A DNA stretch of 64,000 nucleotides. It comes from Macrostomum lignano. Taxonomy: Eukaryota. This document shows positions 12,415 through 58,436 of the stretch, one piece after another. Positions within the stretch are counted from its first letter, which is position 1. The number at the start of each line of letters is the position of its first letter. Both the position numbers and the translations under genes were made by a program. Location of the stretch: positions 52,803 to 116,802 of the forward strand of contig NIVC01003145.1 of NCBI GenBank assembly GCA_002269645.1, in the 5' to 3' direction. The notes beneath the pieces were generated by a model. That model did no database searches. It was not told the origin of the DNA and worked only from the letters and a program-made list of their open reading frames with translations.

Positions 12415-13421
12415 ATGGCTAGCCTTGCTAAACTTACAGCCCGAGAATTGAAAGCCCAACTCTCCGCGGCTGGCCAGCCAACTAATGGTAACAAGAGAAC
12501 TCTGTTAGCGCGCCTGAAAAGTCTGCAAGGTAGAGACCCTGAACAAGACGACTCAACCAGCAGACGAGAAGAATCAACTGACAGCGAGACCGACAGCCAA
12601 CCGCAGCCCCAGCCACCGCCCCCAACCGCCACCGCTCGACGAAGGGTCAGGACCTGCGCGATGAGATCGAAGCGACCGAGGAACGCATCAGGCTACTGAG
12701 GCTCCAAAAGGAGGAAGCGGAATTGACAGCCGAGCTCAGCGGCAGACGCCATGGCACGAAGACGTATGGTAAGCCAGCTTTTTCTGCTAGTTGGGGCGCC
12801 GCCCATTCTGCCTTGGAGAATATTCCCCTCCTGGAGCAAGATGCTGACCCCACCAAGAGGGGCCCACTTCTCATACCTGACTTCGTCGAAGACTCCGGAA
12901 ATGTCAGCGCTGGCAATAAGAAAGGAACAAATACCAGACAGAAGCCTCTGGAGCAGATTAGCATCGGCGAGTGGATAAGTGCGAATGCGAGAATTCTCCA
13001 GTCCCTGATCGAATCTGGCGAGATGATTGACTGGGAAGCGCGCGCTGCTCCAAGGTTGCATGAGTACCTTGCCTACAACCGCCAGTTAGGCGAACTGCTG
13101 AATAGTGGATTTGACGTCAGTAATGTCCTGCTCTATGATGACAGCTTTCGGAGGCTCCAGCATGAAACCAGTCGTCACTGGGACAACGAGTCTTTCCAGT
13201 TGCTCTCACGACACCTGCTTGCTCCGAATCGGCTTAGCGCTATAGACAGCAACTTGCAGCGTAGAAAGCAGCCACAGAATAGGAGGAATCGCCAAATCTG
13301 CCTGCTCTTCAACCGCGATACCGGCTGTAAGTTTGGCGAGGAATGCAAATTTCAGCATGCTTGCGTCATCTGCAGAAGGGACCATCCGGGTCATCTGCAC
13401 GCTTCAGCGTCAAAAAACTAG
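12415..13421 (+). CDS. Ngaro ORF1 (gag-like): N-terminal SAP-like domain, coiled coil, C-terminal CCCH-type zinc finger; one frameshift between 12582 and 12697
   Basis: LTARELKAQLSAAGQPTNGNKRTLLARL is SAP-like. The frame-0 continuation QDLRDEIEATEERIRLL runs into ORF 12723-13421, which ends CLLFNRDTGCKFGEECKFQHACVICRRDH. Confidence 0.75.
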
Positions 13422-15139
13422 ATGACCGCCCGCCCGCCATTGTAAATAGTTCATCAATCCGCGATTTTATTCCTGATAATTTTCCTACATCCAGCTGTGG
13501 TGACATGCGCTTTTGTGAATGGTCGAAGTATCTTGATGAAGACAGAGATGCCGAGTTTCTCTTAAATGGTATTAGTGCCGGGTTTATGATCACTGATGAT
13601 ACCAAATTCTGCGAAAGCTTTAAGCCTAACTACAACTCTGCGCTCGCGCACCAGGAGCTCGTGGATAAGCAAATTAAAGAAGAGCTAAGAACAGGCCGCT
13701 ATGTGATGTCTTCCACAAAGCCTACGAAGGTCAGCCCGCTGGCAGCAATCCCTAAGGGCAGCTCATCAATCCGGCTGATTCACGACGCCAGCGCTCCGTA
13801 TGGAAATTCTATCAACAGTCACTACCATCAGCAGGAACGCATCCGCTTTCAGTCTATCGATGAATTTTATCGTCTGCTCCGTCCTGGCTGCTTTGTGGCT
13901 AAAGTCGACATCAAGCATGCCTATCGCTCCGTTGGCATTCACCCTTCTTGCTACCCGGCAGCCGGTCTACAATGGAAATTCAAAGGAGCCGACTCGCCGT
14001 GCTACCTGGTTGACACCCGGCTGATGTTTGGCGCAGCTGCCTCCGTGTCCATTTTTCACAGAATCTCGCAGGCGATTGTCCGAATTATGCAGCGGTCTGG
14101 CTTTAGCAATGTCGTTGGTTATTTGGACGACTTTGGCCTTGCCTTTGACAGTAGAGCCAAGTGTGAAGAGGCCTTTGAGTTTTTAACTGGCCTTCTCCAA
14201 CGTCTCGGGTTCGACATCAACTGGGAGAAGAGCAGCGCCCCAGCCCAGACCGTCACCTACCTCGGTGTGAACATCGACACGAGTTCTGGTTTGCTTTGCC
14301 TGCCCCATGATAAGATCGATCTGACTGTCAACCTCGTCCAGCAGATGAAGCTGAAGTCTCGGTTGACTAAGCGGGAGCTTCAGAAGCTGTGTGGCAAGAT
14401 TAACTGGTGGTGCCAGGTCGCTCCTCCCGTGGGTAGAAGTTTCCTGCGCAACCTTATCTCCAGAGTTAACTCTCTAGCTCATCCTAGGCACTGCGTCCGT
14501 ATGGATGAGTCGCTGCGTGGCGAGCTGGAGTGGTGGACCCTGGCTATCCGAAAGCTGAATGGCCGCGAGCTCTGGCCCAAGTATCTCAACGAGTGGGTGC
14601 TGGAGAGTGACTCATCCGAGAAGGCGGGCGGCTGCATCGTCCGCAGCCACAATTTTTGTGACTGGATCTTCATCGACTGGGAGAAGGACTTCAATGGCCA
14701 GTTTGCCAAGTACCCGATCAACTACAAAGAAGCTCTCGTGCCGCTTCTCACTCTGATGGTGCTGCGCCCGCTGCTGAGCCAGTGCAAGGTTGTATGCTAC
14801 GTTGACAATGACCCAGCTGTCTTCATCCTCAACAAGGCTGCTTCTAAGGACCCTGAGCTGCTGCGCCTGCTTCAGACCATTGGTCTCTTCTGTTTCGCTA
14901 ACAAAGTTGTGTTAAGCTTCTTTCATGTGCCGGGCTGGTTTCAGACCTATGCTGACCCCATTTCGCGTCTTCATTCTCGGAGTGGCCTCATTAACTTTTG
15001 CATGCGTTTTTATGGCACTGTGCAAGTGTGCCCGCTTGAATTTGCCTCCCACGCGCTGGCCTCTGCTGCCTCCCATTTTCTGCTTTTACAGGTCCTGACC
15101 CTGCGGTGCGGCGGCTTCGGGGGCGGGCGGCTCGTCTGA
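13343..15139 (+). CDS. Ngaro reverse transcriptase / RNase H
   Basis: RLIHD, KVDIKHAYR, LMFG, YLDD RT motifs; RNase H residues ESDSS, INYKEA, YVDN, HVPG..ADPISR; uninterrupted 598 aa. Confidence 0.95.
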   Translation: MQISACLRHLQKGPSGSSARFSVKKLDDRPPAIVNSSSIRDFIPDNFPTSSCGDMRFCEWSKYLDEDRDAEFLLNGISAGFMITDDTKFCESFKPNYNSALAHQELVDKQIKEELRTGRYVMSSTKPTKVSPLAAIPKGSSSIRLIHDASAPYGNSINSHYHQQERIRFQSIDEFYRLLRPGCFVAKVDIKHAYRSVGIHPSCYPAAGLQWKFKGADSPCYLVDTRLMFGAAASVSIFHRISQAIVRIMQRSGFSNVVGYLDDFGLAFDSRAKCEEAFEFLTGLLQRLGFDINWEKSSAPAQTVTYLGVNIDTSSGLLCLPHDKIDLTVNLVQQMKLKSRLTKRELQKLCGKINWWCQVAPPVGRSFLRNLISRVNSLAHPRHCVRMDESLRGELEWWTLAIRKLNGRELWPKYLNEWVLESDSSEKAGGCIVRSHNFCDWIFIDWEKDFNGQFAKYPINYKEALVPLLTLMVLRPLLSQCKVVCYVDNDPAVFILNKAASKDPELLRLLQTIGLFCFANKVVLSFFHVPGWFQTYADPISRLHSRSGLINFCMRFYGTVQVCPLEFASHALASAASHFLLLQVLTLRCGGFGGGRLV

Positions 15140-21654: not shown

Positions 21655-26619
<4,965 letters not shown>

Positions 26620-52327: not shown

Positions 52328-52597
52328 AGTAGTATAGAAAAAGACGCTTCTAGACCCAGAGCACTTTTTTAATGACCGTTTTAAGGGTCTAGAGGGGGGA
52401 CACGGGGGGTAAATAAAAAAACACATCTAAACACCATTAACACATCTAATCACCCATAATCACCCCTAACAATAAAAATCAATCCCAACACTTCCAAACA
52501 CTCCCCAACACCCCCCTCGCGTCCCCCCTCTTAAGACCTTACAAACGGCCATTAAAATAAGGTCTGATCTAGAAGCGTCTTTTTCTATACTACTACT
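52328..52597. repeat. Fold-back inverted repeat at the left end of the Polinton
   Basis: AGTAGTATAGAAAAAGACGCTTCTAGA (52328-52354) is perfectly inverted at 52568-52594; the arms extend imperfectly to about 85 bp around a ~100-bp A/C-rich loop. Confidence 0.9.
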
Positions 52598-52651
52598 CTA
52601 TAACCCCTTGCCCGCGCCGCAGGCGCGAAGGGTCTTTTTCTGTTACTAAAA

Positions 52652-52966
52652 ATGACCCGAGTTTACACCTTTTCTGTTAGTGATACTTTTGAGACTGTTG
52701 CTAAAAATGCAGAGATAATAAAACAACATATTTTGAATGGAATAATTGATGAAGTTTATTTAAAATATGACGACAAGCATGACCTAAAGCTTTATCCATT
52801 AGAGCTGGATGAGATGTATGATTTAGAACAAGAGGGTGAGTTAATATTTCAACTTGGAGATTATTTAAATTCGGATGATTGGGAGGTTAGATCAACAGAT
52901 TCCGAATCAACAAATAGTTCATATGAAACCAGTGATTCAGAGAATGAAAGTGAAATTTTTATGTGA
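52652..52966 (+). CDS. Polinton hypothetical acidic protein (104 aa)
   Basis: ORF preceded by TAAAAATG like the other viral genes; no family recognised. Confidence 0.6.
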   Translation: MTRVYTFSVSDTFETVAKNAEIIKQHILNGIIDEVYLKYDDKHDLKLYPLELDEMYDLEQEGELIFQLGDYLNSDDWEVRSTDSESTNSSYETSDSENESEIFM

Positions 52967-52982
52967 AAAAAATATTTAAAAA

Positions 52983-53207
52983 ATGAACTATTATTCTATA
53001 ACAGAAACGACGTTTATTGTGAAAAATATATATAAAAAAATGAAGGTAAACTATTCCTACATCGGAAATGTTCCAATTAATGAACTTAATGAAAATTTAA
53101 GTTTGATAACAGTTGAACAAATGTCAATAATAATATTAGTAACAATTATAGTAATAATATTGTTTTTGTTTGTAATAAAAAATTTACTACCATGTTGTCT
53201 TAAGTAA
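52983..53207 (+). CDS. Polinton small membrane protein (74 aa)
   Basis: C-terminal hydrophobic stretch IIILVTIIVIILFLFVI. Confidence 0.5.
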   Translation: MNYYSITETTFIVKNIYKKMKVNYSYIGNVPINELNENLSLITVEQMSIIILVTIIVIILFLFVIKNLLPCCLK

Positions 53208-53217
53208 CTGTTTGAAC

Positions 53218-54366
53218 TTAGTTCGCAGACATTATTTGGTTCTCATAAAAAGAACCCAATATTTCTTCACCATCCTTATCAGCAATTATATAGGTTGTAG
53301 GATTTGTATTTAAAACTTTACTGATGGTAAATTTCTCACTTATTTTCCAATATCCTTTTCTTCCCTTTTCAAACTTATCTTTCCATTTATAGATATAAAC
53401 AGAATCACCAACCTTAAAACCTTTAGTTTTCTTTTTTTCAAAATCTCCAAAAGTAACCCTAACATTTTCAGGATTGTTATAAGCTTGTTGAGGAGTCATC
53501 TTTATCGCCGAATGATATGAATTGTTATAATCTTTCACTACGTCTGGTAATATTTTTACCCACTTTTGGTTACCATTAAGACTAAACTGAAACCATAATT
53601 TCTTACCTAAAGTTCGATTAAATCTTTCTATTAATGCGTTTTTACTCTCTCCATAAATAGAATAAATTTTATTAATATACTCCCCATTCGCGTCTTTTTT
53701 CCTTTCTTTTCCTTTTTCAAAATGATACAATTTATACATGTGAGGATTGTAAAATTCTTTTCCTTCGTCAACACACAACCTTTCACTTTTTTCTCCAAGA
53801 CTTCTAAAAGCAGCAGCAACCTCCTCTCCCTTTTTGGATTTTAAAGGAACAGCCCACGCGTATCGAGTAAAACCATCTAATATGGTTAAGATATATTTAT
53901 ATCCTCTTTCGTTCGGCATCGACATTAAATCAGCATACCAAATTTCATTCTTTTTGAAGTTCATGATTTTTCTATAAAATTTAGGTTTTCGATATTCTTT
54001 ATGAAGAATCTTTGCCTCATCAGAACTTAACCCGCCGCCACTTAACAACAAACACTCAACACAATTATTTCCATGTTGATTATAATTAATTCCCAAACCA
54101 AATTTAACTTTAGACTGCAAGATCTTTTTAACCATCCACCTAGTTAATTTTTGACCTACCGATAATCCCTGCAAGTTATCTAATCCTTGAATCATTTTTT
54201 GATCGGCTTCATGTTTTAATCTTAATGCTTCCTCGGGCGGGTTCTTGTCAGCATCTCTATATGCTAAGTCGTGATAGTATGCTAACCAATCAATCCCATT
54301 TATTGGAATTGAATCAGATTTTGGGGTGTCATCAGGATTTAATCTCAAATCTAAGCGAGTGCCGGG
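53218..54366 (-). CDS. PLA2-like domain / retroviral-type (rve) integrase fusion gene, exon 2
   Basis: PGTRL...YYHDLAY (PLA2 HDxxY), then Polinton integrase with the DDE triad (YADL, VDEGKEF, IERFNRT) and C-terminal FKVGD...GSFYE; spliced product 424 aa. Confidence 0.92.
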   Translation of the reverse strand, partial: PGTRLDLRLNPDDTPKSDSIPINGIDWLAYYHDLAYRDADKNPPEEALRLKHEADQKMIQGLDNLQGLSVGQKLTRWMVKKILQSKVKFGLGINYNQHGNNCVECLLLSGGGLSSDEAKILHKEYRKPKFYRKIMNFKKNEIWYADLMSMPNERGYKYILTILDGFTRYAWAVPLKSKKGEEVAAAFRSLGEKSERLCVDEGKEFYNPHMYKLYHFEKGKERKKDANGEYINKIYSIYGESKNALIERFNRTLGKKLWFQFSLNGNQKWVKILPDVVKDYNNSYHSAIKMTPQQAYNNPENVRVTFGDFEKKKTKGFKVGDSVYIYKWKDKFEKGRKGYWKISEKFTISKVLNTNPTTYIIADKDGEEILGSFYENQIMSAN

Positions 54367-54698
54367 TAGTTTACCCTCAATCTTTCGAAAGAGGCTGGAG
54401 CACACCTTAAGCGGTTAAATTACCGCCCATCTCCGTCTGCTCTCTGAACCTTCTCCTTATATTTAAAATACTTAGGAGCTTGGCTGCGCATTGCCACCGT
54501 GTCTTCAAGCTTGTTACCATCGAACCATAGGTTCGCGTGCAAAGCACGATTGGGAAGAGGAGTTACCTCTGTTCCTTCAAAAGATTTCTCAATTGAAGTG
54601 GTACTTGAAGCTGTATGATGGGTTTCACGCAATTTGGAGATGTCGCCACAAATAGTGACTAGCAAGGACATTGCCTTCCTCACTCAGGCCACGGGTTA
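54367..54698 (-). ncRNA. Group I self-splicing intron (IC1-like), 332 nt, without a homing ORF
   Basis: P1 CAGGU/GCCUG with U.G at the splice site; P3 CAUCUCC/GGAGAUG; P4 UGCGUG/UGCGCA; P7 G(A)GAGCA/UGCUCC; P8 GCGGU/ACCGC; A-rich bulge AUGGUAACAAGC; GAAA loops in L5b and L9; CCUAAG..UAAGG receptor. Removing it restores the ORF. Confidence 0.92.
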
Positions 54699-54824
54699 AC
54701 CTGTGAAGTTCATTGATGGTAGGTGTAGTTCCCCTGTATATTTACCAGTAGTAAAGATTGGTGGTAAGCTTGTTAATCCTTTTTGAACATCTAACAATCC
54801 TCCTTCAAACACTATTTGGTTCAT
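54699..54824 (-). CDS. PLA2-like domain / integrase fusion gene, exon 1 (MNQ...GELHLPSMNFTG)
   Basis: TAAAAATG start. ELHLPxxNFxG is the N-terminal half of the parvovirus-type PLA2 motif, and it joins exon 2 in frame to give NFTG|PGTRL. Confidence 0.85.
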
Positions 54825-55374
54825 TTTTAATAGCCTTAAAAATACATGAAAGCACCAATTGTTTTGCAAACTCTTCAATGGTTGGTTGTTTAACTTTTTT
54901 ATAGTTATTATCTACGCTAGTTAAGTATCTTTTATTTGTCCAATGTTCAGACTTTTTCATCTGATCTTCATCTTTGTAACTAAACGAAGAAGCGGGAATG
55001 AAATGATCAATATCTAAATTTCCAGTATAATCTTTTGAAACATAATATTTTCTTGTGAAATTTAACCAATCAAAAAAGAATTCTTTTGTGCAATCAAGAT
55101 ATGAGATATAGTCCTTGTCATTAAAATTTTTCAACGCCCAATTTATTCTATTTCTAATTAAAACAATATGTTTGTAATTATCATCATTGTGATACTTGTT
55201 TTTTCTATATTCATTAAATTTATCTTTATTGTTTTTCATCCAAATAGTAGATGAGGTATTATGACAAGATCGACAATCATTTCTAAATTTTTTTGAATCA
55301 TTTCTCCAAAAATAAAATTCTTTCGTCATTGGTTTTTCTTGTTTACACTTAATACAAATCTTTTTAGGTTCCAT
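54805..55374 (-). CDS. HNH-type endonuclease with an N-terminal Cys4 zinc finger (free-standing homing-endonuclease-like)
   Basis: CIKC...CRSC; IDHFIPASSF...HWTNKRYL..VDNNYKK resembles the DHIIP...N...L...N..K HNH motif; overlaps exon 1 of the next gene by 20 nt. Confidence 0.75.
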   Translation of the reverse strand: MEPKKICIKCKQEKPMTKEFYFWRNDSKKFRNDCRSCHNTSSTIWMKNNKDKFNEYRKNKYHNDDNYKHIVLIRNRINWALKNFNDKDYISYLDCTKEFFFDWLNFTRKYYVSKDYTGNLDIDHFIPASSFSYKDEDQMKKSEHWTNKRYLTSVDNNYKKVKQPTIEEFAKQLVLSCIFKAIKNEPNSV

Positions 55375-55401
55375 TTTATAAAAAATAAATTTAACAATTA
55401 A

Positions 55402-56073
55402 TTAAACTCCAGTATGTCCAGCAGCTTTCGCAGCAGCTAAAACAAGTTTTCGCGGTGTTTTAAATCCTTCTCCAACAGCTGGTTTGTTATTTATAGAATT
55501 AACAATCCTTTTATACAAGCTGGTATTTTTAGCAGCTCTTACTCCCAACTCATCATAAAAAATTTTTGCACTTACTAATTCATCCCTAGTATATAATTCA
55601 GGGTTAAATTTTACCCTAGGGTTCATAACAATATTATATGCTCCGCCCAATTCTCTATATAGTTCATTTCGATTTTTATCAACTCCACCAATTCGATAAT
55701 TATTATTACCTAAATCTGTCACAGCAATACTAGTTGGTGCAGCTCTCGGATATTCATCAACTCCACCCCTTTCTGCAGCCCTAATCTCTGCAACTCTCAA
55801 TTGAGCTTGATCAACATCATAAGCTGGCGGCTCATCCAAAATTTCATCCTCTTTTGGCTCCGTATTTTTAGCAATTTTTTCCAGAAGATCTTTATCTGTT
55901 TTTTCTAGTTCACTAATTTTCCCAGTAATAGGATTAACAAAAGGAGCAGCAAATCTTTCACCAGCTAATTGTATTCCTAACTTTCTTTTTTGTAAATTTC
56001 TAACAAAATCAGAATATCTTTGCTTCTCTTTATAAATCGCTAACTCTCCATCAACGTCCATAAATTGACTCAT
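55402..56073 (-). CDS. Polinton hypothetical protein (223 aa), possible virion core protein
   Basis: TAAAAAATG start; the C-terminus LVLAAAKAAGHTGV resembles a motif recurrent in Polinton accessory proteins (recalled, not searched). Confidence 0.6.
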   Translation of the reverse strand: MSQFMDVDGELAIYKEKQRYSDFVRNLQKRKLGIQLAGERFAAPFVNPITGKISELEKTDKDLLEKIAKNTEPKEDEILDEPPAYDVDQAQLRVAEIRAAERGGVDEYPRAAPTSIAVTDLGNNNYRIGGVDKNRNELYRELGGAYNIVMNPRVKFNPELYTRDELVSAKIFYDELGVRAAKNTSLYKRIVNSINNKPAVGEGFKTPRKLVLAAAKAAGHTGV

Positions 56074-56107
56074 TTTTTAACATAAAAAACTTTTTTAACT
56101 TAAAAAA

Positions 56108-57577
56108 ATGGCTGAAACAAAAACTATGTGGAGTGATAAATTTCATTTCAAAAAGCACCGACAGTATATTAATGAGGTCAGAGCAAGAGATTTAAATTAT
56201 ACCCTACCAACAAGTGATAATTCAAATAACTTTACTACTGGAACGGTAACTTTTGACATCGGCGCAACCAACACTATATTGGATATGAAAAATGCATTTT
56301 TCCGTGTTAGATGGTTGTATACTAGAAATGATGGAACTGCTCTTGCAGCCGGAGATATCGCAGATCGATCCGGAATAATAATAGAAAATGATTGGTTTTA
56401 TAAATGTTTTTCCCAAGCTCAACTAACTGTTAATGGTGCTGAGGTTGAGACATCATCAAACCCCGCAGAGATTAATGGAGTTTTGAAACATTTAAATTAT
56501 ACTTATTTATCAAAACAAGTTGGTGATAATGTTGGGTGGATGCCGGATAAAGGTAACGGTCAAGCAGTAGTTTTCCCTAATGTACAAAACGCAGCCGGTG
56601 CAGATACTGCAGCGCTAATTGTTTACCTTAATACAAACATAGTTCCAGTTGTAACCACTATGACTAATACAAAAGATATTAATACTGGTTTTATAGATAG
56701 ACAGACTAAATTCCCAGTAGCGGTTTTAACCACAGCAACAGCATATGAGCAGGACTTTTCAATCTTCCGCTATTTGGGTTCTTCTCACCAAATCGGTATG
56801 GAAAGGATTAAAATTTGGGATACAGTTGCAAATATCTGGTGGATATCAGCCTAGGATACTTTATGGAACCTCAATTTCAACCGATATAGCAGTTCGTATA
56901 GATTCAATTCAATTAGTCGTACCAACTATTGAGGTAACAGCCCCACTTTTAAAACACATCGATAATCAGTTAACGCATGATCAGGAAATATTTTATTTGA
57001 ATCGTCGACATTTTATGCGAACCATTAATAATAACCAGGATTCATTCCAGTGGCAAATACTGACATCAAAACGTCGGGTGAGATATATTTTTGTTTGGTT
57101 TAAGATAACAAATAGAAGGAGTAAAAGAGCAAATGGGGATTTATATTGGCTTCAATCCGGTGCCATAGCAGAACAAGCAGCCACCGCAACAGACAATGCG
57201 GCTGCAGCTATTAACGAGTTTAATGTTCAGAATATCCGCCTGCAGGTTGATGATCAATATTATCCGGTTAAAGACCCCTAAATTTAAATATAGCAAATAA
57301 TAATGTTAATGATTTTATAAAATATTATCAAGATTATGCTAAAAATGAAGCGTATGCCGTCCCTCAGTACACACCCACAGAGTTTCTAAACATTCATCCA
57401 GTGGTTGTTTATGATCTAACGGCACAGAAAGAAAACGTAGCCAATATTGGACTTAATTATATGTTAGAGATTAATAAAACTGGTAATCAGGCACTTGACG
57501 CCCACGTATTGTTTCTAGAGGAATATATGTCAATTGCTAAAGCTGATGGCACGATTGTTCGGGACGCGCCACTTTAG
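56108..57577 (+). CDS. Major capsid protein (double jelly-roll), two single-base frameshifts near 56780 and 57278
   Basis: FSQAQLTVNGAEVE...VGW; the second frame continues TKSVWKGLKFGIQL...QYYPVKDP; the third continues LNLNI...EFLNIHPVVVYDLTAQKE...APL-stop at 57575-57577. Confidence 0.85.
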
Positions 57578-57660
57578 TGTCGCAGTGCAAAGCACGTCGC
57601 CCCCGCTGTAAGCGGCGCAGGTCTCCGACCGTCGCGCCTATTTAAATTATTTCTTTAAAA

Positions 57661-58422
57661 ATGGTAAAGGCAAAACACGATAAGATATTTCCAAATGATC
57701 CTTTTCTTTGTTTAGTAATCGGAGGATCAGGTAAAGGAAAAACACACTTTGTTTACGATTTATTAACAACAGATGGAATGCTAGACTATAATAATTTAAT
57801 AATTTATACTAATAAACCTAGAATAAAATATTATGAATTTCTTAAACATGGATTAAAAAACAAATTAAAAAAAGATGTCTTGTTTAGAATGTTAAGAGCA
57901 TATGAGCAATATGAGGATGATGACGAACCGCGATTTACACTCGATGACATTGAGGATTTATGTAAAACAATGGCACAACAGCCAGAAAACATCACCGAAC
58001 GAGCCCCAACTGTTAGAGTATCAACCCGATTAGCCTATGATCAAATTCCAAAACATGATAAAACACTAATTATTTTTGATGATTGTATTAATGACGGTGA
58101 TCAAGAATTGCAAAAGGAAATTTTTGTTAGTGGTAGAGGAGATGGAATTGGAGCTTTTTATCTAACACAGTCCTTTAGAGAATTAGAATCGATTATAAAA
58201 AAGAATGCAAGTTGTTGTGTAATGTTTGATTTAGATAATTATGATTTACAAAATATACACGCTAGATTTAATCCCGGGTTGGATGCAAAACCATTTAAAA
58301 GTATGTGTAAAAAAATTTGGGATGATAGCCAATACAAACATATTTATATCAATCCGAGGTTAGAAAGGAAAAATCGAATCTTAAAAGATCTTATAAAAGA
58401 AGACAATGAGGAAGAAGAATAA
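57661..58422 (+). CDS. A32/FtsK-like DNA packaging ATPase
   Basis: Walker A GGSGKGKT, Walker B LIIFDD, and the SGRG...FYLTQS motif. Confidence 0.93.
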   Translation: MVKAKHDKIFPNDPFLCLVIGGSGKGKTHFVYDLLTTDGMLDYNNLIIYTNKPRIKYYEFLKHGLKNKLKKDVLFRMLRAYEQYEDDDEPRFTLDDIEDLCKTMAQQPENITERAPTVRVSTRLAYDQIPKHDKTLIIFDDCINDGDQELQKEIFVSGRGDGIGAFYLTQSFRELESIIKKNASCCVMFDLDNYDLQNIHARFNPGLDAKPFKSMCKKIWDDSQYKHIYINPRLERKNRILKDLIKEDNEEEE

Positions 58423-58436
58423 TTCCCACTATAAAA

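Follow-up and report, generated by a model that had tools for sequence, protein, structure and literature searches.

Published accounts limit nuclear group I introns to the rDNA of microbes (PMC8395846) and describe those of animals as mostly mitochondrial, occurring in placozoans, corals and sponges (PMC11835236). Closest to the locus described here are RF00028 introns of ~300-380 nt found in integrated Polinton-like viruses (PLVs) of Rhodomonas, Paulinella and Desmodesmus (PMC12220804); these are reported as restricted to protists and lie in an ~50-aa gene before the capsid gene, and the accessible part of that report identifies no nuclease. In Bodo saltans virus, a non-integrating giant virus of a protist, the essential viral gene polr2a/b carries both nuclease-bearing parental introns, with HNH and GIY-YIG nucleases, and ORF-less introns, which have been proposed to mask the target and to harm competing viruses (PMC5871332). 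Collaborative homing in phages, whereby an ORF-less intron is paired with a free-standing nuclease, has been proposed as the precursor of elements that carry the nuclease within the intron (PMC3984707, PMC11296320). In the searchable literature, from which closed journals, Repbase and supplements may differ, we found no group I intron in animal Polintons or in nuclear protein genes of animals: the word "intron" is absent from both the coral polintovirus paper and a 2026 PLV survey, no such intron is described in the available main text of the adintovirus paper (PMC8502044), and the accessible text of the paper on nematode Polintons refers to group I introns solely where it considers the possible origin of an HNH domain.

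The window analysed here, a 64,000-nt stretch of Macrostomum lignano DNA that ends where contig C3145 of the 764 Mb assembly ends, contains a Polinton/adintovirus-type provirus of 33% GC (52328-64000, cut off by the contig end) with a group I intron in its PLA2-integrase gene. Like the introns of protist PLVs (PMC12220804), it is an RF00028 intron in a gene of an integrated virus of Polinton type; however, the host is an animal, the interrupted gene encodes a PLA2-integrase, and nucleases are attached. Whereas the mitochondrial introns of animals belong mostly to subtype IB4, the window intron is nuclear and viral; the original prediction, made from the sequence alone, had held that animal group I introns are known essentially from mitochondria. 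The database cited above lists no animal group I introns other than those of corals, sponges and placozoans (PMC11835236). Group I introns in protist PLVs being already published, what is new is the location in animal nuclear DNA together with a proposed driver of restriction-enzyme type, accompanied by site loss. The rule of confinement to microbial rDNA and mitochondria does not hold for these numerous intact copies, which are under selection in the chromosomes of an animal, and they provide a natural system for asking whether a group I ribozyme splices a protein-coding transcript in an animal cell.

On the minus strand, a 332-nt insertion at 54367-54698 has a GGT codon on one side and a CCC codon on the other, exactly as predicted, and is a complete, ORF-less, IC1-like group I intron (hereafter type 1). 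The covariance model RF00028, named in the original prediction as the means of checking it, matches 54250-54800 over its full length with 62.1 bits (cmscan, E = 2.1e-15; gathering cut-off, 50). An Rfam scan of the whole window with fast filters missed the intron at 54367-54698; the RF00028 cut-off was exceeded in five of nine type-1 sibling loci, and Rfam scans at E 0.01 missed four of these nine together with three type-2 loci (see below). The intron folds better than expected for its composition (MFE z = -3.55; 0 of 100 shuffles equally good). In the P1 helix (54685-54703, minus strand), exon U 54699 pairs with an intron G and marks the 5′ splice site, and this U.G pair is present in 25 of 25 aligned copies. 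P3 (54642-54636/54434-54428) and P4 (54631-54626/54490-54485) were located in the window copy, as was the guanosine-binding helix P7 (54444-54438/54402-54397), which encloses the 3′ strand of P3 and P8, all on the minus strand; the P3-P7 pseudoknot core contains the G-C guanosine-binding pair. All four core helices thus lie where they had been predicted, and P8, P5abc and P9 are also there, but the bulge in P7 is an A following the G-C pair rather than the bulged G that had been claimed. The P7 sequence is a GAGCA/UGCUC variant, invariant in all 25 copies, with compensatory variants in the introns of L093 and L089 (see below).

The remaining helices are P2, P2.1, P5abc with two optional extra hairpins, P6, P9.0 and P9. 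IC1-type architecture comprises P2.1, P5abc with an A-rich bulge and a GAAA loop, an 11-nt receptor and P9.0. Of the IC1 features, P2.1, P5abc and IC1-type P4 and J6/7 can be recognised in the window intron, and P7 and J8/7 deviate, so that it is best called IC1-like. It resembles the Tetrahymena-type nuclear IC1 introns of fungal and protist rDNA in P2.1, P5abc, the 11-nt receptor and P9.0, and differs from them in residing in a protein-coding proviral gene and in ending with an A. Among type-1 copies, the loops vary, a 30-nt double hairpin is optional and the catalytic core is invariant. Across 25 copies hand-picked for diversity, one of them misaligned in P6b, 99.1% of helix cells are paired, compared with 39-45% in slid controls. 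Changes on both sides of a pair are seen at 12 of 101 pairs, among them four in P2 and one each in P3 and P9. Given that the sample consists of related copies and that the structural model is a hand-made one of the window intron, this pairing supports, rather than proves, selection on the structure.

The intron interrupts the coding sequence of the PLA2 loop after a Gly codon and before a Pro codon. Exon 1 (54699-54824, minus strand), which matches the N-termini of intron-less homologues, contributes 42 codons up to the Gly codon, and exon 2 (53218-54366, minus strand) encodes, from the Pro codon onwards, a PLA2-like domain and the fused rve integrase, as judged from homologues and Pfam (rve, E = 1.6e-7; Phospholip_A2_4, E = 0.015). 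Among 65 distinct loci, two natural alleles without the intron (L066 and L067, gap 0) fix its boundaries; the original prediction had proposed searching for such alleles, and their junctions agree with it. A junction pattern allowing at most one mismatch retrieved one exact intron-less allele in the genome, on contig C3967, but nothing in which the exons of the window copy itself are joined exactly. A looser pattern gave much noise, with 128 matches (100 of them listed) against 60 for the control.

Overlooked in the original prediction is the last base of the window intron, which is an A (54367) rather than the usual G. It directly follows the 3′ strand of P9.0 (AG/CU, 54396-54395/54369-54368), so that CU and the terminal A occupy 54367-54369 on the minus strand, a position at which sibling copies have G. 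Of 57 type-1 introns, 44 end in A, 11 in G and two have a junction shifted by one base. The terminal A marks a variant of a group I intron rather than a non-member, because A-ending members are a rare known exception, the introns of Coxiella L1917 and stony-coral ND5 ending in A and still splicing. A G within P9, considered as an earlier 3′ splice site, was rejected because P9 covaries.

The intron is one of many. The best 40 of 212 candidates in an intron search of the genome share 88-100% identity, and an exon-2 search yielded 1912 candidates, of which the best 108 were scored; both counts are lower bounds and include haplotype duplicates. In 65 distinct loci (80 fetched minus 15 duplicates, chosen by similarity or odd frame length rather than at random), the site is occupied by the type-1 intron in 57, by a second intron (type 2) in six and is intron-less in two; a third intron-less copy lies on contig C1051. 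The type-2 intron, exemplified by L062:1595-1925 (G000:C2954) with ~23 further copies, has 24 close matches among the best 40 scored, and the single copy scanned reached 33.4 bits with RF00028. It has P2, P2.1 and P5abc sequence in common with type 1, whereas the P3/P4/P6/P7 core is different, which suggests from sequence comparison that introns at one site have exchanged domains. At its 3′ end are two adjacent candidate G residues, of which one alone keeps the frame, and P9.0 pairing favours the frame-breaking one. A third intron (type 3) with a canonical P7 accounts for the 28 best RF00028 matches in the genome (72.7-91 bits); the copy fetched, L089 (G000:C1830:15710-16210), from a sister Polinton lineage, likewise has the Pro codon at its 3′ end. 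One site in one genome is thus used by three distinct group I introns; the original prediction had noticed neither the other two nor the link to nucleases described below. Decayed type-2-like introns with a degenerate PLA2 remnant, found at L081 (G000:C45:485734-486005) and also on contigs C114 and C2521, show older invasions.

Beyond this genome, a group I intron occupies the same codon boundary in two (L093 and L145) of 47 PLA2-bearing loci among 80 fetched from metagenomes. Within it, other PLA2-bearing elements have an uninterrupted PLA2 domain (best 150 of 426 candidates scored). The P7 variant of the window also occurs in three IMG/VR viral contigs (L084, L086 and L088), and the L088 intron interrupts the RPB1 gene of a giant virus at the catalytic motif, as the L086 intron probably does. 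The Rfam scan missed all five IMG/VR intron matches, although three have clear group I cores; the remaining two were discarded as chance. No relatives of the integrase were found in IMG/VR. The most likely source of the intron stock is giant viruses or the PLVs of protists.

Of particular relevance are the nucleases that accompany the intron. In the window, a free-standing HNH/endonuclease VII-like ORF of 189 aa (54805-55374, minus strand) overlaps the start of exon 1. It matches PHROG 1035 (E = 9.1e-7) and viral clusters in Atlas (0.95-0.96), its fold model is poor (pLDDT 52), and a word search returned no homologues; a homologue does lie downstream of an intron-less PLA2-integrase on a metagenome contig (L100:1491-2069). 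Across the 65 loci, the slot upstream of exon 1 holds this HNH-like ORF in 46 and, in 18 of the 19 others, a 167-aa Eco47II-like protein with 103 matches among 114 candidates in the genome. All 11 aligned members of the latter match PF09553 (Eco47II), the query itself scoring 20.6 bits, below the curated cut-off of 25.9, and Atlas gives 0.94 with 179 shared features. Its fold model is good (pLDDT 89), with EcoO109I as best structural match (Z 9.7, 166 aligned, rmsd 3.7; TM 0.68) and AvaII also listed; no solved structure was matched by sequence, and no relatives were found in IMG/VR. EcoO109I recognises RGGNCCY and AvaII GGWCC. These results show that sibling copies encode a PD-(D/E)xK nuclease related to GG-N-CC cutters, a fold also used by the homing enzyme I-Ssp6803I. 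Eco47II itself has been tied to GGNCC (PMC10305163), and by analogy with these remote relatives we infer the same specificity for the Polinton protein. The fold and the Pfam similarity are common to it and to Eco47II, EcoO109I and AvaII; in contrast to those enzymes, no methyltransferase was seen in the examined part of the element, and protection appears to consist of site loss plus the intron.

In the sister lineage the nuclease and the intron are joined more closely. All 28 best RF00028 matches (type 3) abut an Eco47II-like ORF, the frame of which is often 237 aa, and in L089 it continues into P3-P5 of the intron without a stop. Loose contig ends from public runs show an exon-1 junction and, following P2.1, an arm with complementarity to the L089 sequence that immediately precedes P3, which indicates that the Eco47II-like ORF lies in the P2.1 loop. 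Consistently, six of nine close database homologues of this ORF run into an intron core, one of them with the P7 variant of the window. Free-standing Eco47II-like copies adjoin an intron in 34 of 34 checkable cases (coordinates compared by hand; five more not checkable). The nuclease is missing from the three known intron-less copies, where ~1 would be expected by chance, and the association between nuclease and intron is weak because intron-less copies are rare. As in collaborative homing of phages, both states of the nuclease are found, here within one genome; unlike there, the carrier is a eukaryotic virus, with two alternative nucleases per slot and three introns per site. The link to a nuclease suggests an undescribed class of intron-borne endonuclease.

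A Gly-Pro codon pair always contains GGNCC, and the junction codons of the intron-less alleles spell this motif. GGNCC was chosen before counting; in the left 11.7 kb of the element, which the test covered (52329-64000), it occurs 0 times against 7.2 expected (Poisson P = 7.5e-4) and is the lowest of 256 gapped 4-mers. Host DNA within the window is not depleted, with 47 occurrences against 50.6 expected. In 213 kb of element-homologous DNA from 64 other loci, GGNCC is again absent against 86.6 expected, the copies not being independent, and inside the element it occurs in sibling loci solely where L066 and L067 have their intron-less junctions. Gly-Pro pairs are missing from 16 element ORFs (0 against 5.8 expected), a count that is not independent of the site count. 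The metagenome relatives overall are not depleted of GGNCC, and L145 has an intron at the same site yet GGNCC nearby. Among the 77 homologues in databases that have the PLA2 motif, Gly-Pro is retained in 64, the Pro is replaced in four, and nine start later or inside an intron. Replacement of the loop Pro by Ala or Val was observed in P0010, P0017, P0019, P0024, L090, L123 and L130 and is possibly a second way to lose GGNCC. Two other motifs, CTNAG and CANTG, are also under-represented in 52329-64000, at ~0.57 of expectation.

We consider it probable that the mobile intron is both an immunity against, and a passenger of, a GGNCC-cutting nuclease of the same Polinton family. Splicing and cutting, both of which we infer from sequence, would each be part of this mechanism. 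Its first three steps are observed: the intron separates the Gly and Pro codons, which spell GGNCC in intron-less alleles; the family encodes a PD-(D/E)xK nuclease, in some copies free-standing upstream of exon 1 and in the sister lineage inside the intron; and the element has lost every other GGNCC. The intron would thereby mask the single unavoidable target. During replication or co-infection, the nuclease would cut intron-less relatives at the Gly-Pro junction, and these would be destroyed or repaired from an intron-bearing copy (homing); such loss or conversion would explain why the intron has nearly swept the family. The ribozyme would excise itself with GTP and Mg2+, so that PLA2-integrase would still be made, the second splicing step being probably slower in A-ending copies. 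The window copy, which carries the HNH-like gene instead, would be an immune passenger. Because host DNA is not depleted of GGNCC, an active cutter would have to be silent while integrated. The further-reaching proposition, that this is a new conflict module of restriction without modification, in which a short-site type II enzyme was recruited as homing endonuclease of an intron, protection comes from element-wide site loss plus an RNA catalyst as immunity factor at the one site held in place by protein function, and ribozymes brought in by Polinton viruses splice actively in animal nuclei, strikes us as evenly balanced; if true, one genome keeps the free-standing, intron-embedded and nuclease-free stages. 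The required silence of the nuclease, the remoteness of the relatives from which its specificity is derived, the uninterrupted site in other PLA2-bearing elements of the genome, the metagenome relatives without overall depletion and the GGNCC near the L145 intron count against the mechanism. The competition model for Bodo saltans virus is close to it (PMC5871332), but here the nuclease has a type II restriction-enzyme fold, its short site is lost element-wide and the carrier is a chromosomal provirus of an animal. If cutting takes place as predicted, the nuclease link would show animal Polintons competing as live viruses.

Ordinary or collaborative homing by the HNH-like or the Eco47II-like protein at a long site, with the loss of GGNCC left over from earlier selection that a helper giant virus or a different restriction system exerted, is in our estimate unlikely, albeit well worth weighing. 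Collaborative homing is described for phages (PMC3984707), PLVs have been proposed to meet restriction systems that giant viruses bring into a co-infection (10.64898/2026.06.19.733378), the HNH-like ORF, which overlaps the start of exon 1, is present in 46 of the 65 loci, and the retention of GGNCC by the host genome suits this reading. However, both fetched intron-less alleles carry the HNH-like ORF (L066 and L067; 85% and 71% identity), which means that this ORF is tolerated beside an open site. Furthermore, a long site gives no reason for losing every GGNCC, and a fold of the GG-N-CC type is found in the very intron that interrupts GGNCC.

In the frame of exon 1, the first codon of the intron is a stop, in line with the prediction that splicing is needed for PLA2 and integrase; for the integrase this prediction is qualified by an internal ATG at 54195, the start of a 325-aa ORF that includes the integrase core, from which the integrase alone could be made without splicing. 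The nonsynonymous/synonymous ratio is 0.18 in exon 1 (53 open-frame type-1 copies), 0.07 in the 57 exon-2 codons before the first Met (51 copies) and 0.15 in the integrase core (47 copies); for each segment, any copy that a stop or frameshift interrupts there was omitted. Judged by these ratios, the exons on both sides are under strong purifying selection in intron-bearing copies, and part of the exon variation may predate the intron. An improbable alternative is that the intron is a relic that no longer splices in the animal, given its terminal A and nuclear conditions; the integrase would then come from the internal ATG or be supplied in trans by the rare copies that lack the intron or end in G, and the conservation of the exons would be inherited. 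This would accommodate the terminal A in the window and most type-1 copies, the fragmented state of the probable capsid gene in the window (see below) and the two adjacent 3′ G residues of type 2, but it leaves unexplained why codons upstream of the ATG are as constrained as the integrase core, why this constraint is equal in A-ending and G-ending copies (0.075 and 0.067, respectively) and why the catalytic core stays invariant while loops vary; moreover, A-ending introns can splice, as the examples above show.

In annotations, PLA2-integrase genes look broken because of the intron, with database entries starting within it; the proteins P0003, P0044 and P0130 start with in-frame intron core. 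Four public contig sets (three only presumed to be RNA), searched with 54000-55100, list no junction across the intron, and their contigs cross both intron boundaries unspliced. Since contigs lose rare forms and may be DNA, these sets are mute on splicing. Removal by the host spliceosome, for which one in-frame GT-AG pair (GT at 54700 to AG ending at 54351) brackets the intron, is very improbable: it would take out the conserved Gly-Pro-Gly-Thr loop, the exon-2 codons of which specify unchanged amino acids in all 51 copies. Nor is there a pyrimidine tract at the acceptor, and the AG in question is missing from type-2 copies.

The identity of the element as a Polinton/adintovirus was borne out by the integrase, an A32-like packaging ATPase (57661-58422, plus strand; Pfam Pox_A32, E = 4.7e-7), the AGTAGT terminus, the PLA2-like gene and a gene for protein-primed PolB ~10-11 kb from the integrase, beyond the window, in sibling copies (C506, C826, C955, C2140, C2506, C3109, C3469, C5207 and C166). 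Adintovirus genes include PLA2, in an alpha-class virion module (PMC8502044); here PLA2 is fused to the integrase, and the PLA2-integrase gene is proviral rather than a host gene. By position, 56108-57577 (plus strand) is the probable major capsid gene, its three overlapping ORFs reflecting decay or an assembly error in the window copy. It is followed on the plus strand by what we take, from position and motifs, to be the minor capsid (58437-59222) and cysteine protease (59448-59888) genes; the probable capsid and protease genes had no library match, and their ORF size and order fit. The ORF list also contains a 223-aa element ORF (55402-56073, minus strand). The left terminus, AGTAGT..., occupies 52328-52354 (plus strand), and its 27 nt recur inverted 240 nt inward (52568-52594). 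The right end lies outside the available DNA, so that the left AGTAGT terminus alone was compared; it is reached in 13 fetched loci, with 11 different host flanks.

The animal nuclear location that had been claimed also holds: Wnt is a metazoan gene family, and of 86 matches to Wnt exons in the assembly some are on contigs that carry element copies (C952, ~23 kb from the intron, C67, C393 and C506). The element is thus an animal nuclear provirus, and co-assembly of protist or fungal DNA with that of the animal, which relatives in environmental metagenomes and the protist origin of published PLV introns might suggest, is largely refuted and has a negligible chance of being correct given Wnt on shared contigs, the 11 host flanks at one terminus and contigs of up to 1.5 Mb. 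Within the element, two fibre-like ORFs span 59899-61946, of which the first contains ~8 copies of a 57-nt repeat and the second weakly matches F5/8 type C. The host flank encodes an LTR-type reverse transcriptase/RNase H ORF at 13343-15139, and tandem repeats dominate the host DNA of the window (1-52000), including a perfect 4965-nt (TATC)n tract at 21655-26619.
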